Positions 9,735 through 56,991 of a stretch of 64,000 nt of DNA are shown piece after piece. The DNA is from Raillietiella orientalis (Eukaryota), in NCBI GenBank assembly GCA_036172245.1, contig JAYWIR010000006.1:4650001-4714000 (forward strand). Direction: 5' to 3'. Both the position numbers and the translations under genes were made by a program. Below the pieces are notes generated by a model. It did no database searches and was not told the origin of the DNA. It saw only the letters and a program-made list of their open reading frames with translations. The first letter of the stretch is position 1. Each line of letters begins with the position of its first letter.

Positions 9735-9937
9735 CTGACGTGTACGACTCGCGCAAGAAGACGCGCCCGGGGCTTTAAAGGGTGTCTCCGTCCGGGACGC
9801 CGCCAGAGTCCCGCAGCAGCCGGCCGGCCGGCAGGCCCGCGTGGATCGTCATGACGCCGCCACTTCCTCCTGCCAGCCGCGTTCGCAACAGCGCCCAGAG
9901 CGACAAAAGGTGCGGCGGCCGCCGCCGCCACGGGAAA
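9735..9937. repeat. Right arm of 203-bp inverted repeat (partner 7757-7959)
   Basis: CTGACGTGTACG...GCCACGGGAAA is the reverse complement of the left arm. Confidence 0.9.
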
Positions 9938-30929: not shown

Positions 30930-31074
30930 CCCTACGGCCGCTCGCGTCCATCCAAGCGCTGGGTAAAGTGGGGTGGGTGGGAGCGGGCGCGTAGGCGGCG
31001 GCCGGAGAAAGCACGGCGCGCACCTCGCATGGGCGCTCCCTCGAAGACCCTGGCGGCAAACGACCATGGTTGGT

Positions 31075-31077
<3 letters not shown>

Positions 31078-31109
<32 letters not shown>
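31078..31109. repeat. (GA)n microsatellite just upstream of the LRR gene start
   Basis: Uninterrupted GA run. Confidence 0.95.
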
Positions 31110-31113
<4 letters not shown>

Positions 31114-33090: not shown

Positions 33091-33813
33091 ATGGAAGAAG
33101 AGTCCGCCGCAGCAGCAGTTGCCACAAGCATCGTACTCTTATGCCACCTGAGGGAAGGCGTGCCGGAACTTCGCCCAGTAACCAAAGGAAGCCCATACTG
33201 TTCACGCCAGACTGGAATTCTCACCGTCGACGCAAAGACAGCCCATCCTCCCCTCCCTTCATCCCCGAAGCAAACCAATTATCAATGCAAATGGGTTGCT
33301 TCTTTCGGGCAATTGAGCACGAGAAACCTACCATTCAGAGGGAAGCAGATGCAAGCCACAATTGATGCTGGCTTGTTAAAACCAGTAGTTCATGTTTTGG
33401 GTTACGGAGAGTTGTTCCAATCTCAAAAGGAAGCTGCATGGGCAGTTACTAATTGGACTTCTGGTGGTGCCTTTGATCAGACAGCTGACCTCTGTCCAGA
33501 GAATGAAACGCTGCAATCTTTTCGTAATTTGTTGCAGGCCAAAGATACTAAGATAATTCGGACCGTACTGGATGGCCTTGGCAATATTTTAAAGGCGGGT
33601 GGAACGGTGAACCAAACAGAGCGAGTAAGTTATGCCATTGAAGCTTGTGGAGGATCAGATAAATTAGAGATCTTACAAAATCACGCAATTTACCAGGAAG
33701 CACGGTTTCTTCTAGATGTGTACTTTGATACTGAATATGAAAGTGTTCCTCCTACTACCGTAGGTACATGTGAACTTCATGTGGCCTCACCAGAAGGTGG
33801 TTTTGCATTTTAA
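33091..33813 (+). pseudogene. Intronless C-terminal fragment of importin-alpha (alpha2/pendulin-like); retrocopy or retrogene
   Basis: QMQATIDAGLL...QKEAAWAVTNWTSGG...NLLQAKDTKII..VLDGL.NIL...IEACGG.DKLE.LQNH...GGFAF* matches the last ARM repeats and C-terminus of importin-alpha. No IBB domain or early ARM repeats; no introns. Confidence 0.85.
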
Positions 33814-34139: not shown

Positions 34140-36480
34140 CAGCAGACGTTCAGCGTAGATAAGGTACGTTCGCGCGGAAGGATGTGTGCCAGAAGCGCAA
34201 GCCTTTCATCACAGGGAGAGACCGAGTCTTCACGATAGCATGGTTCTTCACCGGGAGAGCGGCTGCAGGCCCTGCCATCGGGTGTCCAGCGGACGGAAAG
34301 CGGAACACATCCGACAGCGACGTCAAGGCGCACCCGGACGGTAGTCAGGGGCAAGCGGGCGGGCTGAAAGGTGGGGTGGCCATTTGCGAGAGAAGCACCC
34401 TAGATCACATCAGGGAAGTCGATATCCAGTGCGCGTCGCCTGAGGAAGAAAATCACCTCGAGCCTGCGTGAGCACAGTTCGACGGGAGGGAGTGCAAGCG
34501 TCTCTTGTTGCGAAACACCCCGGATCAAGGGAGGACCGCGACCCGCGTGGAGCTTCGGGGGCATTCCCTCTTCAACAGAAGAACGCCTCTGGTCTGGCAG
34601 GTCACAGATTGGCGAGACTCAACCTTCTTCCGCCTGTGCAGACACCATCCACCAGGGACGGCGCGGATCGCCCGTGCAGAAGAAGCATCCTCAAGACGTG
34701 CATCAGCAATCGATCCGCGGCTGCAGGATGGGGGTGACCCAGATCCAGAAGACCTCCTCGAAACGGCTGGGAGTTGGAAGTCGCCGACCAAGCCAATCTG
34801 GGAACAGATTCGAAGAGAAAGCCAGTTCTTCCGCTCCATGAATAAGGAAACCAAGTATTGAGGATTGGCTTTGTCTTTCGCCCGCCACCGTAACAGCAAC
34901 AGCGTAGTAGGATCCCCGGAACTCTGCGATCCGAGACACAATGGAATGTTTCGATGGCTCAGAAGCACAAGAAACTCAGAAGCACTGGCAGACAGGGCAC
35001 ATCAAGAAAGAGATGATGTGCTCGGACACAGTGCTCCCAGGATGTGATATTTAATCGAATCACATCATTCGTTATCAACACTTTGCCGATGAGGAAAGTT
35101 TCCTGCCGTAAAGTATTGCCAATGATGTAAAGGCACAAATATACATATTTTTCTTTTAATCTTCTCCAGAAACAATTTAACATTTGAGAGGATGTGATTT
35201 AACCTCTAATTAACTCCACTGGATTTGCCTTGAACCGCTTTCCTCGAACTGCTGTTATCAGAAAAGACATCCGGCCTTTTTCCAGTATATGAAACAATTT
35301 CCTAAGACGCCGACGCTTGACCTTGGAGGAAAAGTTCCGTAGTGTCGAGCATCATGTTAAAATCATGCAGTCGACATTGATGCCCGGTTGGCCTCACTGC
35401 AGGAATGGACTCACCAAAGCACCTTGTCCACTTTTCTTTCATTCAAATTAGCTCCTAATGTGCGAACAATAAAGATTCACGGATGCTGTTCGTCAGTGGC
35501 AGGCAGGTCAATTTTTTCCCCTCATTTCTGAAGAAACTCCGTGAAAATCGCGAGACAAACTCCTAAAGGGGAGGGAACGTTTTGGCCGCCGATAGCCAAA
35601 ACCCCATTCCGTCCTAGGAGCGGTGAACGGTTACGTTGAGTGCCGCCCTCGACCGCCAAGATTTCTCCTTGCCATCTGACCACTCCCAGCCACCGAGCCA
35701 GGGTAAAGTGGAGTAAACCAACTTCCCAATGAACGAACACTCTTGGATTGACCGTAAATCCTTTTGCCAAGTGGTACACATTCCATGACCAGCCACGCTT
35801 TGACTTCGGAACGCACGCAGCCTTCTGAAACGACGAAGACACCCATAGAAGAGCCGAGTACACGTTATTCACAGTGCTACGGACACTTGTAGGTGATTTT
35901 GCGTACGACTAAAGAACGTTTCGTTGGCGAAATCCTGAATTTTTTCTGGACAGGACGCGATTTACAGGAGGACCTGATGCATTTGGGTAGTTCATTCCAA
36001 CTCTTCGCGCTTGCGCTTCGAGATTTGCCTGGCTATTCTCCCATAACCTTCACAGCAGCTCCAGCGAGACACACAAACTGCTTCCCCATTCGTACACCTA
36101 GGAATTCTGCACTACGGTGCTGTGAAGCTTACGTACTGGAAGATGGCAGAGTCAACAAAAGTCGGTTTGCTAAAATGGAAGCTATCTTTAACACGGCAGC
36201 TACTCTGCTATCGCTACGTGCACGTTTCTCTATTTCCTTCGAAAGTTCCACACCAGTTGTATCTTCTATTCCGAAAACTTGGCAAAAGTGAAGCCAGTGG
36301 CCACTGACACATCTCGCTGAAATGGTCGCCACCTTTCCGGCTGACTTCCGGCTTTTCTTTCTTTTTGTCACACGGACGATCACAGAAGACTTTTGCTTTG
36401 ATCAATACTTCGGCGAGGATGGACTATTCGATGTTTTACGGGCAATCCCATACAAACGACTTGGGGGCTTAAAACACGAC
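34140..36480 (-). mobile_element. Decayed Penelope-like retroelement remnant
   Basis: Ordered minus-strand motifs across frameshifts: RLYG(LP)..H, VKDSFHF, YVSF, NGVLAIG...SPLGVCLAIFTEFL, FWRR, LFLDV, LRICSQ...GSPPS. These resemble the Penelope RT and thumb motifs (LYGLPKIHK, VKDS, VSFDV, DGVAMGSPL, WxRYVDD, FLDV, RICS..NGYP). Confidence 0.45.
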
Positions 36481-36786
36481 GGACGGAAGAAAATAGAAAT
36501 TCAGGAGGACCAACGTTTCCAAAACATTCCTTTAAGGCTGGAGTTCGAAGAGCTTGCTTCTCGGGAACGCTTCAAAGCCTCGGAACCTCTCCCATTAGGA
36601 GCTTGACGAGCGACACCCTTGTTTCTCACACCCTGTACACCACCACCGAGCCGTGCAACACGAGGTTTTCGAAGGGCGTCGCTGGGCAGTCGCTGCGTGA
36701 AGGATCGTCGGAAAAGTTCGGGCCGCAGCAAACTCCGGAGCACTCCATAAGAGAGATTATCGTGGTGCTCGTCCCGAACCAACCTA

Positions 36787-36903
36787 ATGGAAAGGTGCGC
36801 GCAGTCTGTGGAGGGGAATCTTTGCTGCGCTGCAGCTCTTGCAAGGCAAGCTCTTATTGCAGCCAGGAGCACCAGAAGCTCCACTGGAAAGCTCATAAAA
36901 AAG
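36787..36903 (+). pseudogene. MYND zinc-finger exon with a 2-nt frameshift
   Basis: Removing one GC from TGCGCGCA gives MERCAVCGGESLLRCSSCKASSYCSQEHQKLHWKAHKK, a complete MYND motif. No downstream exons were recognised. Confidence 0.7.
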
Positions 36904-37649
36904 TACGAACAGGTCTCTGGTCACCTGGGTCCACGCCTGGTTGCATCCCGAGATCCGAAGGAAGACGTGATGTCCGCTGGATATCACGACTTCAAAGTCT
37001 CACATGTACTCTGCAGGGAAACTCGTCTTTCCCGGGGTAAAAAGGAGTTTTCCCCCCTATGCGGGTATTACGCACCGAATTACGCACACATGGTTCAGGC
37101 CGACCAATCAAAACGATGTAGCGAACATCCCTGAGAACGTACTTCTTCCCAGTGCGTTGCATTCTTGATGTCAGGTGTTTCCCGTAAAAACTGCATCGTT
37201 CACATTATAATCCAAAACACATATGGAAGCAAAAATTTCAAATTCTTGGCCGCACGTCCTTCCATTTCGCCTGATTTTGATTTCACACTTCTCGTGTTGA
37301 AAAGGTAACCGGTAAACAACAAAGGTGGTACCTTTTTCCTCAAACTAATGAGAAGCAAATTCGAAAACACTAAAACTTTGATGAATACGCCTGTCATTCG
37401 AGCTTTCGTTCATCGGCTTTGTCCATTACAAGATACACTTTATCAAAGTAGCTATGCCTATTTGCCATATTCACTTTATTCCATACAAATCGCACCTTCC
37501 ACAATTTCTGTAATCTTGTTTATCTGAAGCTCACAATTATTTGCATAAGATTTGCATTTCTTACAGCTTGTTCTATGCGCAAATGTAAGTGAACTTCTTA
37601 GATTCATAAAAGGCCACCTCTTGAATCGAATTCGGTAATGATGCCACTT

Positions 37650-40588
37650 TCAAGGATCACAAACCAATCTACTAAGATCCATGTACCAACCATTCTCTTG
37701 AGACAGACGGTTTTTAATTTTCCGCATTAGGAAGGGTATTTTTTCATGATCTAGCATTCTGTTCCATCGGTTTAAATTTAGTGGCACTACCAAAATGCCC
37801 TCTGCTTCCAGATTACGTAAATCAAGGACCACTGGTCCTTTAATACGGTTGCCATTATGCAGGAGGTGATGGCGATGTATACACAGAATACCCACTCTGA
37901 GAGATTTGCAAATGCACAGGGTAAATGTATAATCAATGAGTACATACCTGTGATAATCTGAAAGATGAATATCTTGCAATGAAAAAGAATCCTGGAAATT
38001 GATTCTGGTAAAAGGGACAGGATCATATCCACGAGAGTATAGCAACAGATGGTCTGGTATAAAAATTGAATTAAAAAATCGTTTTACATGCAAAACAATC
38101 GGGGAACATGCTATGACATGACAAAAATACAGGCATAGGAATCCACTTATGATATAAAGTGACCAGATTCAATGTTTTTTGGTTCTGAATGCAATCCTGT
38201 AAATTTCGAAGTCACTGATTAATTCCAACTATTAACAATACTCGAATTCACTCAATTCACTCATTCATTAATGTGTGGGTTGCAATGAAATTGTTAGAAA
38301 ATAGCCCTTTCTAAACATTACGAAAGCCTGCTTTCTCAAGCAGGAATTATCACTAGCACTGACAAATTGCAAATGATAAAAAGACTCGAAGTTAATAAAA
38401 AAAATTGAATACACTACGGATAAAAATAAAAAAATCCATGATTCTTGATGAGGCCTCTGAATTTCTTCAAAATACAAGGAAAAGTACTAGTTGCTACTTT
38501 AATTACACATTCAATCACACGTCCATCAAAAAATTAGTCCTAGAGCAAGCAGACATGACTAACAAAATTACCTATAAATATTCCTAATTGACTGCAGACA
38601 CCAGATCTTACATAGTCTGCTGACTCCAAAACAGAATTCAGAGCATATTTCAAGGAATCTGATGGAAAATGATAAGGTGCAGCCTTTTCAGTCATTTGCA
38701 AAAGCTCTGAAATGCCACTATGATAACTGCAACCATGAGCAAGCATAGTCTGGTGCATTTGCAGGATGCGCCAAAGTTGTCCAGTTGGTACTAAAACATA
38801 AACAGAATCTCATGACAAGTGATTGTACTCTTACAATCACCAGATCTAAATGCTGAATAGATCTTATCAAAATACATTTGAATCAGTTCACAATCGAAAA
38901 CTCCTAGTATGCCCAAATCTTGTGCCAGAGTTAGTTTTCCTATATCCACCAAGTGCTACTGTAAAGGTAATAACACACAATGCATATGAGAACTGCAGAG
39001 CACCTTACGTAACTCAGTTTCTTGAATTTTTTGTAACAACTCATCAAAACCACATGGCTTATATCCAACAAGAGAAAATGAGTGAATAGCAGCAATCAAG
39101 CACTGCAAATCTCTCACATTTTGAATACTAGAGTGCACCAACACCTTGCACAGGTAATCCAAAAGATCAGTATTCAAATGTTGCTACAACAATGCATTAA
39201 TTTTGCCATTGGAGATATACTGACCATATAGCAAATTTGTAATGCAATACTGCATGCTACAGATAATCCTAATTCTTCCTTAACCACTTTATTACTAACT
39301 ATATCTAAAAAAATTCTGTTATAAAAGAGGCTCCGATGTTTTTTTCCTGCATGCATTGCCTTCTGCAATGCTTTTATTACTTTCCTGATATCAGTGGCTG
39401 ATATACAATCAGCAGATGTTATTAGTTGTTCAAACACTAGATGCAATAGCCATTCTTGGTTTTCAGAAAGCTGCTCATAATCAGACAACGATTGCACAAA
39501 ATTCACTGCTTCAAAAGGTTTCACTCTAAGATCATGCTTAAAAATACAAGCAATTAGTTTGTCAATTTTCTCAGCAGATATTCGAGCAGACAAAGCATAT
39601 CTCAAAAGTGGAAAAAGTTCTATTGGTTGTTCATAGTAGAACTCATTCTCTAATTTAATTTCAAATACCAAAGGAATTGCTTTCTTCAAAGCTTCTGTTA
39701 AGGGACAGACATCTAATTTATCCATAACTAATCCCAAGTGGACCAACTGTTGCAAACTTAGTGAATTTATTTCATGACGCACCATCTGAAGAAGGCCTTG
39801 AATCAAAGGATTTTCTGTTGGTATTTTCAAATATGGCACCATTTTTAATAAATCTACTACTTCGCTACTTCCGAGAAAGCAAAGTTTTTTTTGTAACTGC
39901 TGGCAGAGCCTAATGAATGTTTCAGGAAACTCTGGTTGTTGCTTGTATACTGCACTTTCACTTAAAAGAAAAACAAAACCAAACATTTTTTTGCAGAAAC
40001 GAGAGGTCCCGCACATTAATTTATTATCTAATTCCCTCAGAAAAGCATTCATTATGCACACGTTAACACTTTAAAAACAGCATGCTAATGACCAAACAAA
40101 TTTATGCTTCAATACCTATCAGTTTTGGAGATTTCATTTAGAAGGGCGAATGCTTTAAACAAGTGTTGACTATTCATCGTCTGACGATGATTTTCTATTA
40201 GTTCAAACAACTTATCAATGGTTTTTACTTCCTGTAATGAATTCATTAAAGCATCTTGTTCAAGACCGGGATGGCCTAACTCTGAAAAACAAAGCTGTGT
40301 GAAAACAACAAATTTATGTATAGAGTTTTACTTCATACATGTACGTTAGAATGCATATTTCAAGCTAATAACATGATAGCATTTTCAATACTTTCATAAA
40401 CAAATTACATTAACACAGATTGCAAATCCATAATTACTTAATTTTCGTCGTACTTTTTTTTAAACCTATACAACACAATTACCTGCTTTGTTACTTCCTG
40501 AAACATAGGAAAGCTTAAAGATTCCGAGAGGAGCGAAATACTCAAAGCGAATTGTGCATCGTTTGCAGATTGACACATTTAATGCCAT
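37650..40588 (-). CDS. FASTKD1: FAST kinase domain-containing protein 1-like (mitochondrial, C-terminal RAP domain), about 8 exons
   Basis: Exons read DALMNSLQEVKTIDKLFELIENH..MNSQH; LLQMVRHEINSLSLQQL...PLTEALKKAIPLVFEI; LGIFIDHLLL; and RAP-like GPVVLDLRNLEAEGILVVPLNLNRWNRMLDHEKIPFL. Short GT-AG introns keep the frame. The start codon and exon 1 are less certain. Confidence 0.8.
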
Positions 40589-41925
40589 AATATTTCTTAT
40601 AGCTCTTAGAGCTGTATTCATCACAAATACTTCACTTAGCTCCACTACCGCAAAATATCTTTCGCACGGTGCGAAAATTCAGGCAGTACCAAATTTCCAT
40701 CCAACAGTGTTTTCAATGCATAATAAGGATAAGAATTAGTGTGCCAACATGGTATATTAAAGACGATTAGATTTAAAATTGCTTACAAAAATGTTCGAAA
40801 ATTCTCCTGAGAGCTGCAAGGGAATTCTGTCAACACCGAGTGTCAATATTGATTTCTAAACATTGTTATATTTTGCACATATGAAATGTTTCCTTGTTTT
40901 TGCTTTGTTCTTCAGCTCAGTAATATTTAGATCAAAACACTGTACTATTTAAAAAATATTTATATAACTCAAAATTCTGCACCCTAATTGCACTTGGCAA
41001 TGAAAGGGACAATTTTCTTCAGAACATATGAAGATTCTAGGAACCATCATTCACTCTGGTGCACAACAACGATTCTATTCATCCTTCACGAGACAGAAAA
41101 CCGTGCAAGGGAGACATGGCCAAGTGACGCTTACAGGACGTGAGCCCTCCTGCACGAGCAGTAGGAGGCAAAGGAGGCCGGCCCGGAGCAGCGAGAAGTC
41201 CATTGTAGCTGTGAGTCAGTTCTAGAACGGGATGGAAGAACTGAGCCGCACGGGCACGCTCTGCAGAAGCACAGGTTGCTTCACGCTCCTCATCCGTCCC
41301 GCATCCCGCATCTATCAGCAAGTGAAGGGAAGTCCTGCACAGCAGAAGGCAGACCGCAGTCCGGAAGACAGACAAAGCTCCTCGGAGGCGGTCGAGCTCC
41401 ACGAGTAGATCGAGTGCGAGAAGATACGGCAGCAGAGACGCTTCCTTTTCCACAGGAAAGGAGGAATACATAAAGGTCCCAAGCACGGAATCCTTTCACT
41501 TTGTAGCCGAATCATCATCTGCCTCGAGTTGTTGCGCAACGCGTATAGAAAAAGCCCGACGACTGTGCCCAGCTTGTGCCCCCGCACGCCTGCCTTGGTG
41601 GCTTGCGTGAACTCTTCTAGACGTGTGTATCCTGACAGGATGGGTAGCTGCTTCCCATTTCCGAGTACTGAGGGAGATACTGAGAGCATGTGTGCAAGAA
41701 GGTGTAGTCGACGATAGCGCTCTGGCAGTGTGGGCGGACTCGACCCTCTTGGCTTTGTCCGTGAGCGCTCGGAGTTACCTCATGCCTTGTGCTGGGGGGA
41801 AGTTTTGGCCCTTAGTGTACGGGAAACGGAGGAGACGCTGCCTTCTAAAGACAGGGGTTGCCTTTCAGGCGGACGGCAAGCTGATCTCGCGAGCCTCTTC
41901 GTAGAACACCCTTCTTCGTAGAACA

Positions 41926-42778
41926 GCCCGCGTCAGAGGCCTTCTGGTTAAGGCTTCCGCGGGTGGCACCATGCGTCGCGGGTTCGAATACTTCGGCAGA
42001 TAACTGACGCCACTCCGTCGTTTGGGTTCCGAGTTTCTCCTGCAACGGCGCTGGTTGGCCGAGACATTCGGGCGTGGCACCGGCGGTGGATAAAGCCGGC
42101 GGCCTCCCGATGAAGGCCGGAACAATGGGAGTCGACCTTCGGGTCCTCCCAGGAATAAAGGAGTGGGGAGTTCCCCCTCCTGTGTGCAAAGGAGAGCGGA
42201 CCCCCGTCACCGGGGGACCGCCTCCGGTTTCAAGATGGAGCAGGAGCCCTCACGGGCACCTCTCCAGTTGTTCAAAGGGGCGGACCCCCTGTTGGGGGGT
42301 CCCTCCGAGTTGTCGCCTCTCCAGAAGAGTGCAAGGAAGCAAGCGAGAGCGATCCCCCTGCAGGAAGCTGCAGGGCCCCTTCTGAGTTTCGGGAGCATCC
42401 CTTCGGGGGTTGTCTTCAGAGGAGTGAATAAAGGAGCGGTTCCCTTGCGGGTTCCCTCCGGAGAAGAAATTCCTACAAGCGGATCCTTTCCGGGTTCCCT
42501 TCGGAGAAGTTGAAATGGAGAGGACACCACCCCATTAGGGGGGGGTGCTCCTCCGGAGAGAATGAGGAAGGAGATTCCCTTCGGGGTTCCCCTTCGGAGA
42601 CAACCAAGGTGGGAGGTGCGATCCCCCCGTCCAGGGAGGATCCCTCCCCAAGCGTGGGAGGAACGGACTCCGAGCCCTTCCTGGATTCATAGGGCGGACC
42701 TCCATCCCGGGGTGCCCCCTATCCTGAAGAATTACACGCCCCCCTGCGGGTTGCCGTGGGTGGAGGGGCGTGGAAACA
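41926..42778 (+). mobile_element. Long tRNA-derived SINE copy, 5' complete, 3' truncated, 15-bp TSD
   Basis: Head GGCCTTCTGGTTAAGG (A-box-like) and GGTTCGAATAC (B-box-like). Aligns with 60430-61235. TAGAACACCCTTCTT occurs at 41902-41916 and 42779-42793. Confidence 0.85.
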
Positions 42779-42859
42779 TAGAACACCCTTCTTGACACGG
42801 ATCCTTCTACCGCGTTTTCTTTCCTCTGATCCTACCGAACTTCGCGACCCATATTCTTT

Positions 42860-43050
42860 TTAGGAAAGTCCTGAGCGCTTCCAGCAGTTCGAAGACGCGT
42901 TGGAAGCACATAGTAGGCTGACGTCGGGATACGCGTGCAGAGGGTTGCTTTCCTTCTGGTGGCACAGTGCAGAGACGAGCACTGTCTTCGAGAGCGCCAC
43001 ACTTTCGGACTTGCAGTGGGCTTGGTCTTGTGACGCGTAGGAAAATGATT
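42860..43050 (-). mobile_element. Possible hAT (Charlie/SPIN-like) transposase remnant
   Basis: SALCHQKES then FQRVFELLEALRTFL resembles hAT ALC.EM.S....(RWLSRGKV)LQRVFEL.EE.R.FL, but the diagnostic RW motif is not preserved. Confidence 0.35.
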
Positions 43051-44059
43051 TCGGGAACCTGCTAATGAAGAGAGAATGATCAGTCGACAAAGTTCCGCTA
43101 TTTCAATATCAGCCGTTTTTGTTACTCTTAATTCTTCAAAACAAGCAAATGAAAAAAAAAAATCGGAAACAATTTGTTTGTTATTTTCACATGTGCAAGG
43201 TTTCGCCTAGCAGGATGTGTCAGCTCCGATCGAAATGCCAAGGAATAAAGATCATGAGCTCTGATTCGTAATGAAACATATTTTTTGGATGGGTGTAGTT
43301 TGTGCTTGAACTGGGAGATTATTAGCGCCTGTTGTGACGGAGCAAATAGTTGTGGGGCAGTGGCATGTCCACTACCCACAACGGGAGTTCGATGCGATAC
43401 GCTTCGGCTCCTCCGAGTGGTGAGTGACCCGTTTGTAGAAGCAGCATCTTTCCTCCCCTCCCGTTCCATTGCTTATCTGCTGAAGACCACGCGTGGTTGA
43501 ACTCGACTGCAAGAGCTCTTCGCTAGAACCATGCAGCAGCCTCCGTTGCCGACAGCGCGCACAGCAGGAATGTTTTCTTGGAAGGCTTCGGAGGTATAGA
43601 CGACAACCAAGGAATTTCTTGAGGATAAATTTCGACGCCGACCTTCACTATTATTACTGTCATCATTACTCCCTTTCTCGAACGTTACCAAGGGCACGTA
43701 GGAGAGCCGGGCGTGGTCTTTGGAAATGCGTTTGGTGCTCCAAGCCGCCTGTGAGGCGCAAGATAGTGGCTGAGACCCGCTGCTCGTCCGAAGGAAAAAA
43801 GGAACGGGTCCAGAATTGTCGCAAAGCACGACGTTGAGGAGTTCCTATTCTCTCAACGAATCCCGTAGTGAGGAGTCTGAGAAGGCACGCCGGAGAATGG
43901 TGCGCGTCATTCCGTTTGCAGCCGCTCTTCGCCGGCAACGTGGGAACCTTCTTCCGCTCTGCAAGCGGCGCTGCGTGTGCCAGGCGGCAGGCACTCGGCA
44001 AGGGTGCACCCTACACTCGCGAACTCTGTGGCACGTGCCTGCTGAGACCCGTGCTGTCA

Positions 44060-44350
44060 GCCACGAGGCTGCATCCTCCGCGTGTGGCACCGAGCGTTGC
44101 GGGTTCGAATTTCCAAGTGGAGGATCGACGCCAGAGAAATAAGTGCGCCGCGGGTTCGAGTTCCCCCCTCAAGAGAACGCTGGTTGGTGCACGGACTTGA
44201 AGTGCGGCACTGGTGGAAGCCCAATGCCCCCCACTGAGTGGCCGGATTGGGAGTTGACCATCCAGGAATCAAGGAGTCGGTTCCCTCCAAGGTTCCTTCC
44301 CAAGAGTGAGAGGAACGGATTCCTTCCTCTGGAGCTCTTCCTGGATTTTG
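44060..44350 (+). mobile_element. Short, diverged member of the tRNA-derived SINE family lacking most of the middle hairpin block
   Basis: TCCGCGTGTGGCACC...GCGGGTTCGAATT head, CCAGGAATCAAGGAG, then a direct jump to CCTTCCCAAGAGTGAGAGGAACGGA...TTCCTGGATT. Confidence 0.7.
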
Positions 44351-44727
44351 CGAGCTCCACGGTGGGTGCAAAGGCAGCGTACTGCAGGGGCCACTCCTTG
44401 CGCAAAGACCTATGGGCTTGTCATGGCACATCGGGCGAAGCAGAAAGCGCTGCAGGGAAGCTGAACGACGCATTCGGCGGAGGATCCGAAGATCAGCTGC
44501 CAGTCGGATCTACGGGAAGCAAAGATTCCTCCTGAAAACATGAAGTCCCCTTGAGACTAAGATAGCAGCTGCAGAACCCCTAGGCATGGACTCGGAAGCC
44601 AAGGAGACTGGCACCCGGACGCTTGAGGCACAGGGCAATGTGGAAGTGTGGTCAGGAATCTCTACGTGGAATTCGACCTTTGACCGAGAGCCCCGGACGA
44701 AAGGTTCCACTTCGCTTCCACTGGAGT

Positions 44728-45450
44728 GTTTGACACCCGGTTCCGCCAGGGCATTTATTTATATAAAATAAACACACACGTCTGTGGCAGGACGTTCGAT
44801 CTTGCGACGTTACTTATGAATACGAGAAGGAACCTGCCGAGAACCGGCACGCAAGGCAACGGGGTCTCCTCGGCAGCACAGGGGAAGGGGAGACAAACAA
44901 AAAGAAAAAATAAAACAAAAAGCATACAATCAAAAAACGTGGGGATGGTTCGGGAAGGGATCATTGTTTGCTGGAGGGTGTCCTCTGCATCCTTGTAAGG
45001 ATGCCCGCAAGTTCCTGTTTCACTGTTTCCAGATGGGGCGATCTTGACGCTGTGCTTAAAAACAGGGCCACAAAATACATGGCGTCCTTGTCGTTCAGGC
45101 CTTCTCTGGCGTTGCACCATTTCGGTCACGGTCGCGCTGCGTGGCACAAAGTGCTTCTGGGGATGCGGCCGGCGTGATGGCGTCACGCTGGAAGGGGCGC
45201 TTCAAATCGTCTTTGGAGTTGTCCCACAGTGATCCGCAGGGATGCGGAAAAGAGTTCCCACAAGGGATTGAGGGCAAGACAATCCATGGGCAGGTGCGTG
45301 AGAGATTCTCTTTCTCCGCACCCGCTGCAGTTCGGGCTCACCTCCTCCCCCGGCTCCAATGATGTGCCACGCTGGAGTGGTGGGTTCACACGAATGTGTA
45401 ACAAGCGGCGTTGAATGCTGATGTGGGGTCCTACCACAGGAGACCACATG
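44728..45450 (-). mobile_element. Tx1-like retrotransposon 3' fragment
   Basis: PNCSGCGERESLTHLPMDCLALNPLWELFSASL, shared UTR, terminal AATAAATGCCCTGGCGGAACCGGGTGT. Confidence 0.82.
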
Positions 45451-48400
45451 CTCCATTCGGAGAAGCTTAGGATACGAGGATGAAATGACCGCGATGTATA
45501 TAGATACGATTTTTCATGGGATCAAATTAAATTTTATATAATTCAAAATATATAAACTGAGTACAAGAAAATAGCAAGGATTTACTAATGCCTATAGTAA
45601 GAGGAAACAGACATTAGAAACCCTGGAATAAATAATAGATTTATATTACTTGCTGCATGCAACTGAAGCTGGGAAAATCAACTCAAGGTCAAATCTCTGT
45701 AGCAGCTTGCCACCTCCCTCTTCAAAGCACTGCCAGGAAGTAGCATGCTGCTACTGCTGCTGCACAGCATTCCCAGCAGGCTGCCCTCTTCCACAAAAGC
45801 AGCCTGGAATCGGCATGTTTTGCGTCAACCGCAGAGACAACAATCTATCGAAAGCCCTTCACATCCCCTCACCCCCACGACAGCATTGCAGAATACCCGA
45901 GGAAGATCCAAATGCACCGCTTGCCAAACTCACAACTCTGAGACACAGAATGGCGAAGGAAAAACGTAAGCCCCGGAGAACTCTCCGCCGTTCACTTGCA
46001 CGGCAGAGAGGGAAACGTCTGCCTCCTCCCCGCAGACAATCGGGTCGAATCCTTGGCAACCCTCCCAATCCATGGCCCGCCTTCTCAAGGTGGGCTGGAC
46101 GCTTGCGCCAACAACTCATCCCATCTCACTCCGCTCCTGCACTTTTTCTTTTCCCGGAAACCGAAAAGGCAAGCGATAGGGCAGCCGCTGGAAAAGTTGC
46201 CTGCCTTTTGCATGCAGCCGGCTCCTTCGAGTGCCTTGTCCTGAAAATCCTGACCGGACACTACACCCTAATGTCCCCGCTAATTCACACGCCGGATTCG
46301 ACTCACGCGTTGCCATTAGGACGTAATGGCGCGCTTCCGGTTCGACGTGAGCAGCAGCCATTTTACTTTGTTCCAATTTTTCACGTTTCTGTCACATGCG
46401 CTGGAGGAGCAACTGGTGCTCCCGCGTTCCCGAAATCGCACGGGCCCTTCGTTACGAAAGGAACCTGGATCGGATTCAGCAGTCAACTGGAAGAGTAATC
46501 CCCTCGAAACGAGTCTTCGGGAAAGCAAACTCCTCAACTAGGGAGTTGAGGAAGATCCAATTGCAGTTGAAGTGCAAAAGAGCGAACTTCTGCAGTGGGA
46601 GTTGACGATCCCGTAGTGAAACGAGAGAGCTGTGGGGTCGAAACTCGCAGGTGAAAACGCCACTGTGGCAGCCGCGTGGCTTGGGAAGGCGGCCGTGTTC
46701 CCGGCCCGCTGGGGCCCTTTTGCCCCCTACCTTCCCCGTGCGAAAACAACAACGCTGGGTTCCTTCGGATATCGCACGGACCTCGCCAATGCCACCAGGT
46801 CCGAGGTGAAGAACTGGCGATCCTACATTTCTCCGCAGCCTGCGGAAATTCACAAGCGGTGTCTTTGTGGAAAATCTAGACCGTGAGGAGGGGGAATGGG
46901 AGCTGTGAACTTGCAAAGCTCACACGATTACCTTCCATCTCATGCCTTGGAACTCCTGACAAACCTTCCTATTCGCTTGACGATGCTCCTCTGAAGAAAA
47001 ATATGCTGGCAAATTGGTGACCGCAGGTGATTTTTCTTAGTCCCCCTTGCCGAGCATTCGGAAATGAGCGTCTGAGAGGCCATTAACAACTTGTGCACTT
47101 TCATTCCTGGGCCCCGTTTTGCAAACTTCGCGCAAGTGGGGGAATGAAGGGAGAAGGGGGGGTTGCTTTTGTCTCTACTCCTATCGTTTGCTACTTCCCC
47201 TAGACATCCACGGGCACTTTGAACTTGAAATCCCGAAAGCACTTTCCCGTGTTCCAAAAAACAAAAAAAGAGGAAACGTTCTCCAAGAGCATACCTTCAC
47301 TGCAATGCCCTTAGAAACAGACTCCTCTGGTACTAAGAATCTTTGCTTTCTGTTCCTGAATTCAAATGCAACCAAGCAATTTTATTGCACCTGTTCCGAA
47401 CGGAAAGTTCATTGTAAACTTTCAGCATTTCGCCTCTCTTGCAGATGCAAGATGGGCTGCATCTTTGCCGAAAAATCTTGGAGTGCCATCCGATTTGTTT
47501 TTCCGAAAGAGAAGGGGGAGTAGGGGAGGGAAAAGGAAGGAATTTTCTTTTCTGGTTCAAGGAATCAGCTATCACCATGATGAGCCACGGCGCACTTGCG
47601 TGGTTCGAAAGAAGCGCTCCAGTGGAACCGACATCATCTTCAGGAAGAGAAAAATGCAATAAGCTCTGGTGTCACCGGAACGCATGTAGTCCACCTCCAC
47701 AGTAACCTGCAAGCGGAGCAGATCCTTCGGACGGGGGTGTATGCACGACGCGCTCCGCTTCCAGGACCATCCCTCTGCCAAGGCGACCGCCACCACTGTT
47801 GACTCGTAGAACATTCCAGTGCTCCAACGGGAAAGAAAGCATTTTCAGCAGAATTTCTTCAGCCGAGGAGCTTCTTCGGCAGCTCTCCCCTTCCTCAGCC
47901 GAGAAGGGACTTATGGCCCCTGTGCGTGTGTTTTTTCTCCCCTGAGTGAGCCGGTGTTTTGCTGAAACGCGTTCGGCTCTTGTGTCGGGACACTTTGCCT
48001 CGCCCAACTTGCCTCCGCCTTCACGAGCTCGGTGCGCTTCCTGGGTTCGCTGCCGCGAGGGTACATTGCGGGCGGAGGTGAAGCTCATTAGTGGACGGAC
48101 GTCTGACCACAGACGGGCCCCACAAACGGCGAAACACACATACCTTACGTCGTCTAACGATCTCTCTTTTCCTGTGCAAAAACATTCCTGTCACTAGGGA
48201 GGGGGTTGGTGCACTCCCTTGGGCTCGCAGAAGGGCACAGCTCCTCGAGTGGGTGGAATTCGATTCTTCCGATGCACCGGCGACGGAAGCGAGGGCCGGA
48301 GGAGTGGGGTAACTGCGGTCCTGACTTCCCCTTCTCCGCGCACCTACAGTCGACTTTCGCAGGAGGCTGAGGATGCCGACACCTTTTTTTCTTTCCCCTC

Positions 48401-51400
48401 CTCCTGCTCAGCAGTTGCAGGAGCCGCACCGGAGCGGCGCGCGTGCGGCTCCAGGATCCGGTGAGCACTCCGTACTCGAAAAGGTGCAGCACCTGCCTTT
48501 GTACTTCAGATGATAGTGGGCTGCTGATTTGAATAGCTGCGCTGTGGCAGTTTCTAGAGGAGCTCAATGAGCAGCGCCGTGCGCGGCGCCTTCCTTTCAA
48601 GAGCTCAAGAGATCCGCCTTGGACCGTCTGTTCTTTTTCCCCTTCAGGCAAACTAGTAGTCTCCTTCACTGTCGCGAGTTCGTGATGGGAGTTTCGGGCT
48701 CCAGCGATTGCATGGCTCCCAGGCTCGCTTTTCGGAAGGGTCCAGAAGCAGAGGGCCTCTTCCAGTTGTCTGAAGGCAGCCTAGGACAGGAGCATGGCTG
48801 CTTCTCTGACCACGTGCACTTTCGAAGGAGCAGATTTTCCTCTGAGATTGGAGGAGTTTCGTGGTAATCACATTATGTCAAAGATCCTGATCAACTATGA
48901 CTTCAAAGGCGCAGATCTTGGGGATCGCCGCTCGTCCATGGTCCTTGGTCGGCATGCGCTATTCGTGCTGGAGCGACCGAACGCGTGGACGAGGTCAGGC
49001 GCAGCCCAGGGAGCAGTGCAGACGGGAGCAGTGCAGCTCCATATTCCGTGATGCATATAAATGTACTCGCCATAAGGTCAGAGTTCGAGGAGTCGACATG
49101 CCTCGTAGCGGAGGTGTATGAAACGTGCGAGAACGGCGCGCTACTGATCGCCGAGTCCGTCGAGCCGAGAAAGCACGCTCTTCATCACACTACTGATCTC
49201 ATCGGCGCATGAAGAGGCCACTAGGCGGCAGCATGTTCGTAACGATCGACTGGTGTTCTTAGTATGAGCATCAGGAGGCAGAAGGAAGCCACATTCATTG
49301 GGTGAAAAGTTGCCTCTGACCGAATAAATTGCCACATCGAGCAAGCAAGACGAATTCCAGCCGGATGATTTTAGGAATGTCAAGAAATCTTGAAGAAATG
49401 GATAGAATAGCAATACGAAATTCTTTCAGATCCCTTTCCAGATGCAGATGGTGGTAAGGCGAAAATTTGTTGATCCGCGCTGGAGGAGCACGGAGGTGAG
49501 GGAAGGTGTCAACGCGTTTCGGAGTCTCCACACCCTCTTTCGGTCTTTCCTGAAATGGGTTACGGAATGGCACGAAGACAAACCAGCACAGAACGCGGGT
49601 GTTTGCGAAACACGGGCCGCGTGGGAGGAACCAGAAACCATTAAGAAGCATAGCTGCGATTCCATGACAACCATCTGTACCGAGGAGCCATTCACACGAG
49701 GATGGCACCTGGGAATTCTGGATGGGGACTTTGGCGTGGAGCCGCCAGATCACGCAGTTGTCGGAATCGGCAACAGCATTTTTTCTGGAGGGAATGCCAG
49801 AGTTCTTGCACAGAATTCGACAACCCAATGGCGAAAAGCAATGAGAATTTGTTAGGCTCTGAGAAACTGCAGTGCTTTGGCAGCAGCTGAAGGTTTAGTC
49901 CTTTGGATTCCTGGATACGTGTAAGGTTTGCTCCCTGTGATGGGAAATTTTGTTGGGGATCGGTCAATGCCTCCTGTTTTCCTGTCTCATCGTACTCATC
50001 GATTCAAAGTCTGTGGTCCAAGTGCACGCTCACAGATATCCATCTGTTGTACAACTGCTCGCATACACTTTACGGTTCCTCCGGGAAGAGTTCAGTTGAT
50101 ACAGTTCTGATGATTGATACAGCACGCTGCCTTCAGCAAACTTGCCGTTGTCCAGGAAACCAAGTACACTGCCATTAGAACACAAGTTTCGTGTATGGGT
50201 TCATCGGCATTCCCCCCTGAAGGTCTTTCACTCGGCATTCGGATCCCATTTCCCGGGCCTGGAGGTGCTTCAAACTTAAAATCAATTTAGGCGTGCAATT
50301 TTCGGGACGAATCCAGCAATTTCCATTGAGATAAACGGATTCTTGCGCAAAGGCCAAAGGCCAAAGGCCAGGCACAAAGGCACAAGGCTCACGGCCTCCC
50401 TGAATTACTCGAAGGCCAGCTAACAGTTAAATCAGGATCCTCATACTAAGCAATTGATCAGTGAAGTTCCTGTACTTCTGGAGGAAATTCGGAATTTCCT
50501 TCAAAAGCTGACCAATGACTTTGAGGCCAAAGGAATTTTAGCCTTTCAGCCGACTTTGGGGTGTTGGAATGCGAAACACCCCAAAGTCGGTCGAAAATTC
50601 AATTCTCATCGAGCCAGTTAGAAGAACTGAGAAAGGGTTCATTCTTTTCGTGGGCGCATTTCACGGGAAAGACTGTGCTGCGTGTGTGCGAGAAAATTTA
50701 TGCACGACGGAAGAACCGAATTCTTTCGGATTTGGAAATTTTCGAGCGGGCAGGTTTCATGGATTTCCTTCTTCATCGGTCTTCTTCATCATTACTCCTT
50801 TGTGATTGCCGAATAAGCTAGAAACGTTCGAGATGACTCTCCCAACGATAAGACAACAGGTGCCAAGTATGCTGTGACCCCAAGTCCTTCATCTGAAATG
50901 AGATGCTCGCCTGCTTGCCCCTGGTTTAATTAAAACTGCTCCGATGGCGAACGAAATGAAGGTTTTCCACTGACTGAGGATACCGAACCCATGAATTACG
51001 AGCGAGCACCACATTGGTGAATCTGCTGGCTCTCTGGATTAGTGGACGGATGCCCGATGAATGCAAAGGATGAAGGCCATTGTGATGGCGTCCATCTCAC
51101 ATCGAAGTGAAGTATGTCGTACTATGGGTGTCACTGATGATAACAAGTGAAATTCACTAACGCACTGTTTTTGTTCATGGATGACGACGGAAATTTCGAG
51201 AAGGCCAGTGGAACTGGACGTACGATCGGGCTCGTCCCGTTGCCATGTGTAGGTATGTAAACTGAAAGGCTGAATAGCGTGAGCGAACACGTAAACACAT
51301 GACGGTAACGCAGTGTTACTCCATCCTTGTTTGCGCGCCGTGTTTTGCCCAACTCACCTAAATTAATCCAATTTGACTTGCCGGACAAAGAAAAACACGA

Positions 51401-52328
51401 AACTCGCTTAAACTCGAGATTGCTTTCTGGAAATTTCTAATGGAGGGCACTGAAATCTTGATTGAGCTTCACATTCTAACTGGATCTCGAAACTAAAACC
51501 TGCGTCACCTTTTACGAGCAGCAGTGCGTTCCAAGGAGTGTCATTTTCCGCGGCAAAGGAATGACTGTTTTCAACTTTCTTTCTAGGGCGAGTGGTTCAA
51601 TCCTACAGCCACAAGTCAATTCTTCACTGAGTTTCTCCACATCGTTCGGACGTACTCATACGACAGTGATGGATGAACGAGTTCCAAGATCACGTTTCAG
51701 AGGAAAGACCGAATCTAATTATCCGTCGACGGGTGTCCTCACGAGCAAACGGTGACGATGGCCACGTACACATCCGAGCTACCAGCGTTGACTGACCCGA
51801 GTCCTAAGCCATCAACTACACTTGCAAGAACCCTCGCCATTGGCTTCGTGCTTGCAGCTTCTCCGGCTGCACCGCCATATTTTCATGGAAATCAATGCAT
51901 ATTCATGCCTGAATCTCTCATCGCAGAATTGGTACGGAGTTTCGCTTCGATTGGCTCAGCATTTTGTACGTTGCTCAACGGTACACTGAGCATTTAAAAA
52001 AAAAAAAATGGTCTGCTTATCGGCGACAGCTCCTACTCCGAGGCTTACGTTTCCGATAATCTGCAGCTCACCTTTTACTCATCCCGATTTCCTTGCAAAT
52101 CGGTGGACAATTCGATGTGTCCCCGAATCGGTACCTCGACAAAATTCAAGCAATGCTCTTCAAAATGGTTCGGTTTATCTTGAACATTCTTATACTATTC
52201 ATGTGGTCAGCTCATTGCCTTTCCGGCAAGATTCGGACCCTGTCGGGGCTGCAGTGCTCTTCGAATTCGGAAGGTGACCCAACACTTTTCGTGTTGAGTC
52301 ACCTCGGAAGCAGTGTTGGGCCACCTTG

Positions 52329-52650
52329 GAAGCAGCTAGAAGAGAAAATTTACTAGTCATGGTCTAACAACTAAAGAACAAGATATGCAGGACTTGTTCA
52401 ATCAGATAACTGAATTGAAATCTGCTGACACCCAGTGTAGCTGCTCTTCAGTCTCATCTCCTGGATGCAGCAGTGAATCTGTTGTTGGAAAAATTAACTC
52501 GTGAACTTGACCCTACTAAAAATAAATTGCAAGAGACTCAAAATGAACTCAGTGCCTAGAAAATTACTCCTGACAGTAACACAGGAAAGCTGCTTTTGGC
52601 CAAATGTCGCATGCTCTTCCAAGAGAATCAAACACCAGGGATGACACAGT
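52329..52650 (+). pseudogene. WTAP: WTAP/fl(2)d intronless pseudogene fragment
   Basis: EAARRENLLVM/LTTKEQDMQD...ITELKSA/SVAALQSHLLDAAVNLLLEKLTRELDPTKNKLQETQNELSA*KITPDSNTGKLLLAKCRMLFQEN. The conserved Trp of NELSAWKFTPDS is TAG (52557-52559), and there are two frameshifts. Confidence 0.9.
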
Positions 52651-52956
52651 CTAGGTTGCTCTGTTATCTCAAAACTGAGTTCCCGGTATTGATAATTTCA
52701 ACGAAAAGAAAATCTGCTAAAACAGAATCGTTATTTTGATAATTCCATTCAGGGCGTAAGAATATTTTCTACTGCTGATGCTGTGTTCTACACAGCATTC
52801 CAAAAAGTTAATTAACGAAGTATCTAATGAAAAGTAAAATGTCTCATTCAAATATCCATTCCAACAAGCAGGAAAACTGCAAGCTGATTAAATTCTGCAA
52901 AAAATTTATTGTAGAAACAATCGAACAAAAGAATCATTTTTGATTTTAGTTTTTCT

Positions 52957-55900
52957 TTAATATTCGGCAGCAAAGGGATAATTTGGATGGTCGGCAGTCC
53001 TGGAAGATCAGGTTGCAAAAATCTTCACAGGTAGCATGATTTCTTACCATTCTACAGCGAGATATCGCTTCTGTTTATTTAAGGCGAGAAGCCTGGTCAT
53101 GTCTTCATTGTCCAACTCAAAATCAAAAACTCCAATGTTTTCCTCAATACGACTTTTGTTCACAGACTTTGGGATGACGGCAATACCACGCTCAATCTTT
53201 ATTTGATCGACAACGTGGTTTCGAATCTCATTCTTCTACTCACCTGAAATCGTATGAGGATCTGCGCAACTGTTTTCTTATGTTTCTGTGCAATTGACTG
53301 AATGCACTTATCATCAAAAAGACTCTCATCATCATCCGGAGCATTAGGTCGATCCCTTGATCCCAGTGGACTGTAGGCTGTCAACACAATATTTTTTGAT
53401 TTGCAATATTCATGCAATTTGCTTTGGTTCAGGTAAGGATGACATTCCACCTGAAAGACACTAGTTCTATCCCAAACTTCGCCCCATAGCAGACCTGATT
53501 CACCACAGGTGGAATAGTGCACACATCTAGAATTCGCTTAATCTGCTGGCTGTTAAAATTGGACACTCCCAGAGAGCGCACTAATCCTTTGCGAACACAC
53601 TCTTCCAGGGCAGTCCATGTATCCACATAATCAACATCACCGTACAACCATTTGCCAGAAGCATCTTTTGGGAAGAGCTCATCCCCTTCCTAATAAAGAA
53701 ACTGGAAGTAATGTTAGTGTCAGCATTCCCTTAGCATTCCTTGAAAGCCATGGGCCAATGCACAAGATACAGATCGAGGTAATCCAATTGGAGATCTTTT
53801 AAAGTTTTCTCCAGTGCAGGTAACACCAGGGCAGGACGATGGACAGTAGACCACAATTTGCTGGTTACAAAAATCTCATCCCTGCTAATGGTGCCATCCT
53901 GGATTTTCTCTTGAATGGCGCTTCCCACTTCTGCTTCATTTTGATAGACAAATGCACAGTCAATGTGGGAGTAGCCCACAGATATTGCATGCTTCACTGC
54001 TTCATATACTTCTGTAGGTTTGGACTAAAACAAGAATTGCTAATCAGTAAAAACAGTCAACAAATACATGCTTGAAGTGTTTTCAATATAACTTTTGTCC
54101 AATGACTTTACTGATCCTTCTTAATTTTCACTTGATACTGATCAAGGTTCGTTCTTGCTTTCACGATGTTATTAATTACACATGCTTCCTGCATTTGATT
54201 TGAACGTAAATGGGAGTGGAATTTCCGAATCGAAAGCACTTGGAATGAAGTGTATTATTTCATAAGCACAAAATATTCTCTCATTTCTTCAAAATAGACT
54301 GATGGCCATTATTGCATGACTTGATATCTGCTACATCAAGGTTGCAAGGAGAAAATGAACTGTTATGTTGTTTCAAATTTCTACTAGTGATCAAACTTAT
54401 TTAAGTTCATGTATTTACATTGTTACCCATACCCATTAGAAAAATATGAAGTGTTACTGCCTCGGTTTCAGAGTCTAACTTACACATATGAACACCACAT
54501 GTTAGGTAACACAATGAATTGTTTTCATGTCCAAGATTCTCAAAATAACTAAGAATGAATTGGTACCACTTATATCTTTCTGCTTCATGTTTTTCCTTTA
54601 AAAGTATGATCTTTCTCTGTTCTTAGGATTGCATGTTAGGGTAGAATATCAAAAAGAGAAAGTAAAAAAAAAAAAAAAGGCCAAAATCATCGAAATATTT
54701 TTAGTTTTTATTAATGGGGTAATGATGCCTCTATCATAATGCACACCACTGTCAAAACAGCTTGTTTTCACATATCAAATAACTCCTTCACATAGCAGCA
54801 TTACAGGAATCTTTTATGCAAGAAATTCAGATTATGAATCAATTTATTTTGTAGACAAGTAACGAAAAAACAAAAAACAAACAAATCTCAATGACAACAG
54901 ATTTTATTTTCTTAAAATCCTATATGAACACTGGTACATTTAATCCACAATGACTACGGGCATGTATTCAAACTCCTCTTCAGACCAGAGAAGTGAATTA
55001 GAAACATGCTGATAGAGATCATAATGAAACTATTTTCAAGGCCAGTTCCTTCATGCTTCCACTCCCAAAATTTCAATGCTGCCTTGACTGTTCTCAGTTT
55101 TCAGATTCAAAACTGTAAACCTAAAAACCCAGTGCATTTAGTTCCTGGAAATGCTCAACATATCCAAACTCTCCACATTACAAAAATCCAAAGTTCAAAG
55201 ATTAGCTTTCATTCTTGAAATGTCCTTCTTGAATAAATAGCTCCTTAAAATCGCTGTTACTGTCATACTATGGAGCTGTTGTTCTTACTTATCCTTTTGT
55301 TGCATTTCATTCTACATAACCAAACAGAATTTATGAACTCTAATGATACAGATACTGATGGTCACTATTTCAAAGAATTCCATGGGACTTCAAAATAATG
55401 CATTTCATGTACGTCTCGACAAAAACAAAGCTACCTCCCTTGTGGCACTCACTCAAAAAGAAATGTGGACATTATTATAATGTATTGACACCATCGAAAC
55501 AGTTCTTTGTTCCAAAGTATGTTTTCAATTCTAAAATGAACTGGTGCTTTCTTCCTAAGAATTCTCATTAGCACAAATTCTAGGCAGTACAATGTGCAAG
55601 TATAATGAAGCCAATGAGCACACAAATTTGATTATCTTCATCATGTTTACTGTGTGTATCTCCTTTGGAGACTTCATTGATTTTCCTGAACTTAGCCATC
55701 ACACTCTTTGTTACCAAATACACTGATACTCCTACAGTAGCAAAAATGCTTCACTGGGATTGATGTGTAGGAAAAGCTGCAGCTCATACACTAGCATTTT
55801 CAATCATGCTATTTAAGCAAATCACAAATGCTGTAATTCACTCCAAAAACTTTAGTTATTTTACTCTTGATTATTTCCCCTTCACTTGCCATCCTGTAAT

Positions 55901-56991
55901 CTTCCTTGATCACAATCATAGAAACTCTTTTTGATGGCTCTGTGTTGAGTGTTCAGAATAAGGAAAAGATGGAAATAATGTGGAAGAATGAACGAATCGA
56001 ATCAAGTACTCTTAATTTTTTTTCTCAGAGTTATTTGCTATGTTCATTCTAGTGTGTTTCATTTTCTGGCATTCCAATCAACGCATTTGCCACTGTTTCT
56101 TTTTGGTTTTACAAACTCATATGCATACATGAATTCCTTCGTTGAAAGAAGCAAAAAAACTTACTCAAAAGCCACATGCAAAATAAAAATACCCACATAA
56201 ATGTGGATGGCCACAATATTTTGATTATTCTTGCCCACCCTTCACTGACTTGCTAACTGCTTGAGCTTCAAATTTCAGTAATCAATACCACAAGAGACCT
56301 GAACGCTCACCACTTATAGGCATCGTGGCCAAGCTTCAGATTTCATCCCATTCGTTAAGGCACATTCAGAGAAAACCTGCATGCTTGAGCTCCGGGCATT
56401 AATTCCTGTGCACTTCCGAAGTAAAAGAATGGACTCGCATTCCCATCGATTCATTGGCATTGAAAATGTGAGGAATGCAGAGGAACGTCCTTCATTCAGG
56501 GCAGGACACGCCTCCCGAAAACGAGAAAGGTGCTTTGCAGATCTTCCTCGAGGCACCGTCCCTGATCCCCACGGGCTTCCTCGAGGAGCCTCCGGGGCCG
56601 TCTTTTCCCCAAGTACCACCGACCTTCCGTTGCGTGGACTCCGCCTTCCGCCTTGGGCGACCAGCCGGAAGCACTCAAAGGCCCCATCGCACGAAGCAGA
56701 ACCGTCGCTGCAAATGCTGCAGATCAAAGCAGATCTTCAAAGAAAGCAGAAAAAGGAAAGCACTGGCGTAGCTGACGGATCGCCAAGAGCACAACTGGCA
56801 ATTTTCTCTTCGGAAGCGGTCGGACTCGTGAGGGTCACGTGCACCGACACCACCTTCCCGCGCACACGGAGCCGGCAGTTTGAAGGAAAAGGAACACGAT
56901 TGGGTTCCCGAATTACCTTCCACGTTCCCAAACCCAGGATCGGGATCGCGTAGTTGTTGGAAAGAGGTAGCTTTTGTCCAGCTCGCAGCAT
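52957..56991 (-). CDS. Aldo-keto reductase family 1 (aldose reductase-like), 317 aa, 6 exons
   Basis: Exons 56991-56917, 54024-53740, 53689-53495, 53450-53244, 53196-53048 and 52999-52957 total 954 nt. Motifs: [72 protein letters not shown]. Intron 2 must be GA-AG. Confidence 0.95.

Follow-up and report, generated by a model that had tools for sequence, protein, structure and literature searches.

Can an intron that begins with GA be removed from the transcript of an otherwise intact gene? The question is raised by an aldo-keto reductase gene in the 64,000-nt stretch of DNA analyzed here (the window), for which the original prediction held that the segments HWPMAFK and EGDELFPKD can be joined in frame only by taking out 50 nt (53739..53690), that no usable GT donor lies at hand and that read-through meets TAA after two codons.

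An AKR1B-like gene is open only after removal of a 50-nt GA-AG intron

By reading-frame reconstruction, the gene is open only once the 50 nt from 53739 to 53690 on the minus strand have been removed. Together with the removal of four further introns, this yields a CDS of 954 nt, or 317 amino acids plus a terminal TAA, which is its sole stop; we found no other defect, and the claim that the rest of the 317-aa frame is intact thus stands without a second lesion. The five introns measure 2892, 50, 44, 47 and 48 nt, and only the 50-nt intron starts with GA, the other four reading GT...AG. Exons 2, 3 and 4 each match Pfam PF00248 by themselves (E = 2.6e-19, 1.3e-10 and 1.1e-06, above the gathering score), exon 2 alone finds the chains of human aldose reductase with E = 1.6e-35, and the spliced 317-aa model aligns over its full length with 11 homologs at 52-60% identity (147-189 identities over 311-317 aligned positions). 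The best named matches of the exons in protein searches come from hexapods and crustaceans, and these searches gave no annotated protein above 73% identity either for this gene or for the relative seen in the RNA contigs described below. In common with AKR1B-type reductases (aldose reductase, PDB 1ads etc.), the predicted protein aligns colinearly, carries the active-site residues, including the HWP motif, and falls in the (alpha/beta)8 family PF00248; it differs from them in being only about 55-60% identical to its best full-length homologs and in having N at residue 221, where homologs commonly have W. On its predicted product, we assign the gene to the AKR1B-like reductases.

Read on the minus strand, the sequence across the intron is TTC AAG / GAATGCTAAGGGAATGCTGAC...TTTATTAG / GAA GGG, with slashes at the junctions, and unspliced read-through gives E, C and then TAA. 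Apart from position +2, the anatomy of the intron is complete (Table 1). The branch A of the CTGAC and CTAAC motifs lies 30 and 24 nt, respectively, from the 3' splice site, which is within the tested CTRAY range of 18-40 nt, and the 3' end, ...TTCTTTATTAG/, is a terminal AG after a pyrimidine tract, as in U2-type introns. At the other end, the 5' GT or GC of U2-type introns is replaced by GA at 53739-53738. The fold of the intron (-5.4 kcal/mol, a value taken without a shuffle control) is unremarkable. U12-type introns have the donor /RTATCCTT and a branch site TCCTTAAC 10-15 nt from the 3' end. We rejected a U12-type assignment for the 50-nt intron, whose donor is GAATGCTA and in which neither RTATCCTT nor TCCTTAAY finds a match within 53690-53739.

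Table 1. Coordinates of the AKR1B-like gene, its GA-AG intron and associated features in the window (slashes mark splice junctions).
Feature	Position	Strand	Details
AKR1B-like aldo-keto reductase gene	52957..56991	minus	start to stop codon; 6 exons
Exons of the AKR1B-like gene	56991-56917, 54024-53740, 53689-53495, 53450-53244, 53196-53048, 52999-52957	minus	
GA-AG intron	53690..53739	minus	50 nt, phase 0, between K120 and E121; GA donor, AG acceptor
Donor site AAG/GAATGC	53734..53742	minus	exon-end AG, +1 G, +2 A (window 53738), +3 A, +5 G
Branch-site-like motifs CTGAC and CTAAC	53713..53723	minus	intron positions 17-21 and 23-27
Pyrimidine-rich tract and acceptor ...TTACTTCCAGTTTCTTTATTAG/	53690..53711	minus	
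Direct 8-nt repeat GGAATGCT	53722..53740	minus	two copies (53740-53733, 53729-53722), 11-nt period, spanning the donor
Rival GC-AG intron (AAT/GCTAAG ... GGAAG/GGG)	53686..53735	minus	50 nt; in frame, stop-free; FKEWDELFP

Splice choices around the intron

Aligned to human aldose reductase (3lz5_A), exon 2 stops at chain residue 117 and the second residue of exon 3 falls on residue 119; no residue is lost or added, so the exon 2-exon 3 join is gapless, and it is gapless against 11 close homologs as well. We enumerated all in-frame, stop-free removals around the site (n = 2010), and FK/EGDELFP is given only by the GA(53739)-AG(53690) register, as had been claimed for this join. The two GT-AG options both start at 53763 and delete VHWPMAFK, including the catalytic His, so that the statement that there is no usable GT donor is upheld, as is the one on the early TAA. 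AT-AC options delete at least 20 conserved residues. Use of an internal CCAG acceptor would add 12 nt ending in an in-frame TAG, and the GA(53739)-CCAG pair is absent from the stop-free list. The remaining alternatives in register or dinucleotide lose conserved residues or merely shift the register of the same product. The 50-nt piece is, in this assembly, a real intron whose donor is GA.

The donor motif had also been described as nearly duplicated. A repeat does exist and is in fact exact over 8 nt, but it is not unusual here: a repeat this good appeared in 238 of 20000 shuffles but in 2249 of 20000 random 73-mers drawn from the window, and we discarded it as a signal.

RNA junction in a relative

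Among public sequencing runs, only one contained part of the stretch, and no DNA run did; it is a metatranscriptome in the form of contigs (word share 0.05), which was aligned at 85% likeness, a setting at which joints often stem from other organisms, and the contigs are taken here to represent a relative. A 594-nt contig covers 53244-53448, 53493-53686 and 53737-53871, skipping 44 nt and 50 nt between these pieces, and goes on toward exon 5 after a further gap of 47 nt. Other contigs have loose ends that run into sequence resembling exons 1 and 6. The 50-nt joint is cut from 53686 to 53737 with 5 letters fitting either side, and 53690-53739 is one equivalent register. Contig cover is absent over the intron, a circumstance that carries no weight as evidence. 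The pieces differ from the window at 8 of 135, 8 of 194 and 21 of 205 letters (90-96% alike). Since they differ by 4-10%, the contigs represent either a relative or a divergent allele and not this sequence, and they therefore show the junction of the relative and not the use of the GA donor in the window. In a close relative, the mRNA of the orthologous gene is thus indeed joined at FK/EGDE; the intron of that relative may well have a GT donor.

Individual differences were listed only where they lie at least about 31 nt from the ends of the pieces, and the list thus leaves out the junction flanks. Seven of the 27 listed differences cluster in 12 nt (window 53338-53349), where the window reads N-A-P and the relative W-S-L, the W being common in homologs.

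The same contig bears on a second way of reaching a full-length protein, in which a GC-AG intron shifted by 4 nt would be used and Trp would replace Gly at residue 122. The original prediction had set the nearby GC aside as shifting the frame, which is correct with the TTAG acceptor only, as GC(53735)-AG(53686) is in frame, free of stops and gives FKEWDELFP. According to Frey & Pucker 2020 (PMC7072748), animals also use GC far more often than any other non-GT donor. Nonetheless, we consider this choice highly improbable: its donor AAT/GCTAAG has none of -1 G, +3 A and +5 G, the better TTAG acceptor stands 4 nt ahead of the GAAG that it would use, and W occupies the residue 122 column in 0 of 162 homologs, G in 109. 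The contig of the relative likewise has the Gly form, as its joint placement implies a Gly codon (K-E-G-D-E) and not the Trp codon of the GC-AG intron, within the 5 ambiguous letters of that joint.

Conservation of the intron position

We compared the gene with 75 metagenomic loci that encode relatives of exon 3, recovered by a protein-guided scan and reaching 73% identity at best. An intron at exactly the same phase-0 position is present at many of these (L004, L006, L008, L014, L034, L039, L040/41/44, L045, L048, L052/53, L055, L057, L058 and L065/66), and wherever a eukaryotic genomic contig among the 75 loci has an intron at that position, its donor is GT. At L072 the intron lies one codon off and is likewise GT. 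The closest locus by exon 3 (73%), L003 (L003:1261-2549), has no intron at the GA position and has intron positions in common with the window gene at residues 25/26, 186/187 and about 255, a pattern suggesting that one lineage lost the intron and another changed its donor. An exact search of JGI metagenome contigs for the 22-mer at the end of exon 2 gave 0 matches. In human AKR1B1, an exon boundary presumably also falls after residue 117.

On this comparison, the intron position is ancient and widely common to AKR1 genes. Because the position is ancient and all sampled contigs that have the intron use GT, GA is the derived state of an old GT intron. The same uniformity tells against the use of the GA donor, as every other sampled organism with an intron at this position has GT.

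Introns and base quality elsewhere in the window

Ten introns were rebuilt in the window, five in the AKR gene, four in an ARL2-like gene and one in a gene for the small subunit of serine palmitoyltransferase (SPT); nine are GT-AG and one is GA-AG. The GA donor had been called the only non-GT donor among about 21 introns, and it is so among the introns that we rebuilt, with the count standing at 10. Since the other nine use GT, there is no sign of genome-wide tolerance of GA. Eight of the ten are 43-51 nt long (window 22163-22903 and 52957-53739), and the 50-nt GA intron falls within this class. The GT donors (GTAATT, GTCTGC, GTGAGT, GTAAGA, GTATCC twice, GTACGG, GTATGG and GTTCCC) have little in common beyond GT. 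The ARL2-like gene (minus strand) encodes 184 aa and has introns of 51, 45, 43 and 47 nt, all GT-AG; the SPT small-subunit gene (minus strand) encodes 75 aa and has one 386-nt GT-AG intron. A search of the whole window with Rfam gave 0 matches, and thus no snRNA gene.

The SPT and ARL2-like genes lie close together: the SPT stop TAA (22923-22921) and the ARL2-like ATG (22903) are 17 nt apart on the same (minus) strand with no AG between them, and we regard the two as a putative operon-like or dicistronic pair (window 22903-22923). Both ARL2-like intron 1 (22788-22838) and the SPT intron (23028-23413), on the minus strand, begin GTATCCTTT, which we take to be the U12-type donor consensus, and in the SPT intron TTCCTTAAA stands about 12 nt ahead of the AG. 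The motif RTATCCTT has 5 matches in the window against 1.93 expected by chance, 2 of the 5 lying exactly at these two donors. With two introns of U12-type appearance, the organism seems to keep the minor spliceosome.

The rebuilt genes also bear on the quality of the sequence at the donor. Over the 1737 coding nt of the three genes we found no frameshift and no premature stop; gross base errors are therefore rare here, and gene models free of frameshifts argue for good base-level assembly quality. The A at +2 could nonetheless be a base-call or assembly error, or the assembly could hold the rarer of two alleles, and the functional gene would then have an ordinary GTATGC donor. A single T>A difference separates GAATGC from GTATGC, other introns of the window have donors of the GTATG type (GTATGG once, GTATCC twice) and the ancestral state at the position is GT. 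Against an error stand the clean 1737 nt and the second copy of GGAATGCT, 11 nt downstream, which also has the A and would fit an A that predates a small duplication, if there was a duplication at all; because the repeat is not significant, this last argument is weak. Overall, we judge an error or a minor allele to be quite unlikely.

Constraint on the gene copy and the fate of the donor

Of the 23 codons that contain the 27 listed differences between window and relative, 11 changed synonymously and 12 non-synonymously, which indicates moderate purifying selection since the split from the relative. When the 12 replacements were polarised against 162 homologs, the rarer state lay in the window at about 6 sites and in the relative at 3, with 3 undecidable. 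As about 6 versus 3 is far from significant, the window's side of the comparison carries no clear sign of decay, as far as residue frequencies tell.

These observations bear on the reading in which the A at +2 is real and the donor is dead. The window copy would then be a null allele or a very young pseudogene, its transcript retaining the 50 nt and meeting TAA two codons on, and the copy would be dispensable; AKR1 enzymes are usually multi-copy, which is the reason for supposing that one could be spared. Several lines favor such a loss. All other sampled genes with this intron have GT, as do 9 of the 10 introns rebuilt in the window. Under an ordinary spliceosome, moreover, a +2T>A change usually disables the donor: of 6 such human variants tested, 5 gave no correct product (Llinares-Burguet 2025, PMC12805630). 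The window protein also has somewhat more rare residues than the relative, including N for W at 221. By contrast, the 954-nt CDS has no second lesion, the splice context is exactly that of working GA donors (PMC5714493), the asymmetry in rare residues is the non-significant one given above, and N is found at 221 in 2 of 162 homologs. We regard a dead donor as unlikely.

The explanation that we prefer is genuine GA-AG splicing of the window copy, to which we give a probability of about one half. The intron would be a U2-type intron, handled by the major spliceosome, at an ancient AKR1 position, with a donor that changed from GT to GA; the pre-mRNA would be cut at AAG/GA and joined to the TTAG/ acceptor, giving the full-length 317-aa reductase. 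Recognition without a U at +2 would be aided by the exon-end AG, +1 G, +3 A and +5 G, by the two consensus branch sites and the pyrimidine tract, and by a length of 50 nt, typical of the 43-51-nt introns with little donor consensus found here. In favor of GA-AG splicing are the intron anatomy, complete except at +2, the ancient position, the intact remainder of the gene with its active-site residues, the junction in the RNA contigs of the relative, the lack of a clear excess of rare states on the window's side, the frameshift-free neighboring gene models, and an exon-end AG with +3 A, as in GA donors known to work (PMC5714493). From these features we infer that an A truly occupies +2 in the DNA and that the intron is efficiently removed from transcripts of this copy.

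Other features of the window

A 769-aa open frame (28827-31136, minus strand) lies in DNA of 66-68% GC and has LRR_8 stretches at 12 places; among its 40 best matches, nearly all are arthropod chaoptin/artichoke-like proteins, at 23-32% identity. With the hexapod and crustacean matches of the AKR exons, we take this to point to an arthropod-like animal that has no close relative among the annotated proteins searched. GC content is strongly mosaic when positions 1-32000 are compared with 36000-56000, 2-kb windows ranging from 0.33 to 0.68, and repeated LINE-tail-like frames occur where GC is high. Two frames, at 7548-7955 (minus) and 9739-10281 (plus), give almost the same translation and therefore form an inverted repeat pair. 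An open frame at 33064-33810 (plus) covers no more of an importin-alpha-like protein than its C-terminal Arm and Arm_3 part; it may be a fragment, the last exon of a gene or a retrocopy. Finally, a 298-aa open frame (37650-40070, minus) has no Pfam match and gave atlas leads of the FAST_1/RESC6 type (score 0.94-0.97, with a low recognition value); it is probably a gene for a FASTK-like mitochondrial RNA-binding protein.

Comparison with known GA donors

In human FGFR1-3, Brackenridge et al. are said to have reported in 2003 that a GA donor, serving as an alternative site, is used efficiently by the major spliceosome. The window intron has the GA donor in common with these genes, but the FGFR site is an alternative one that needs a GT, the canonical site, 6 nt upstream (as cited in PMC7072748), whereas the nearest in-frame GT in the window, at 53763, is 24 nt upstream and its use would delete the catalytic His. 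A likeness in origin is offered by ATM c.6347+2T>A (Llinares-Burguet 2025, PMC12805630): there too a derived +2 T>A sits in an old intron and correct mRNA is still possible, but human +2T>A variants gave it in only 1 of 6 cases and then at 12%. The same yield here would make the reductase gene a hypomorph.

Introns in the larvacean Oikopleura dioica are very short, as they are in the window. To our knowledge, O. dioica lacks the minor spliceosome, whereas the window holds two introns of U12-type appearance. O. dioica is moreover a tunicate, whereas the homology matches of the window are arthropod, and a larvacean-like reading of the tiny introns, the close gene pair and the GA donor finds no support in those matches. 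GA-AG introns in O. dioica do have the same flanks, with AG upstream and A downstream, and in both O. dioica and Eurytemora affinis, whose GA-AG introns have these same flanks, GA-AG outnumbers GC-AG (PMC7072748); the available part of a tunicate splicing paper (PMC13326754) contains no GA-AG passage. The view that GA donors, a known rarity, are common in E. affinis and Oikopleura agrees with Robertson 2017 (PMC5714493) for the copepod and with PMC7072748 for both.

What follows from the window intron depends on the fate of its donor. If the donor is unused, this is a mere splice-site null allele or assembly error in a member of a redundant enzyme family. If it is used, gene predictors and spliced aligners bound to GT or GC would break or drop the gene, as in E. 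affinis, and other genes in the genome would probably be missed likewise. An ancient intron that drifted to GA and yet works would mean that tolerance of A at +2 needs no newly inserted intron, and would bear on 5' splice site recognition in genomes with very short introns. More broadly, the major spliceosome of this lineage might routinely accept donors in which G is followed by a base other than T, as in Eurytemora and Oikopleura, here acting on an ancient conserved intron. This is a doubtful proposition; if true, relaxed +2 recognition would have arisen independently for a third time, in a genome combining near-consensus-free introns of 43-51 nt, introns of U12 type and one or more gene pairs that resemble operons. 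A genome of the Eurytemora/Oikopleura type would be expected to have GA or GG donors at 3-12% of its introns; the window sample is 1 of 10 rebuilt introns.

E. affinis invites the most detailed comparison. In this copepod, GA or GG donors were counted at 36 of 297 and 64 of 623 introns, the exon-end AG being obligate and +3 nearly always A (PMC5714493). The copepod introns are constitutive, as the window intron is predicted to be, and both there and in the window removal is obligatory for the frame, the exon ends in AG, +3 is A, the acceptor is ordinary and no helper GT lies nearby (PMC5714493), and the best named matches of the window genes are likewise arthropod. As far as the protein searches show, with no match above 73% identity, the window does not come from E. 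affinis itself. The two systems differ in the history of the introns: those of E. affinis are lineage-specific new gains and not ancient (PMC5714493), whereas the window has a single GA intron at an ancient position, with GT elsewhere. GA donors as such are already known, and it is this ancient rather than newly gained position that sets the window intron apart from the copepod cases.
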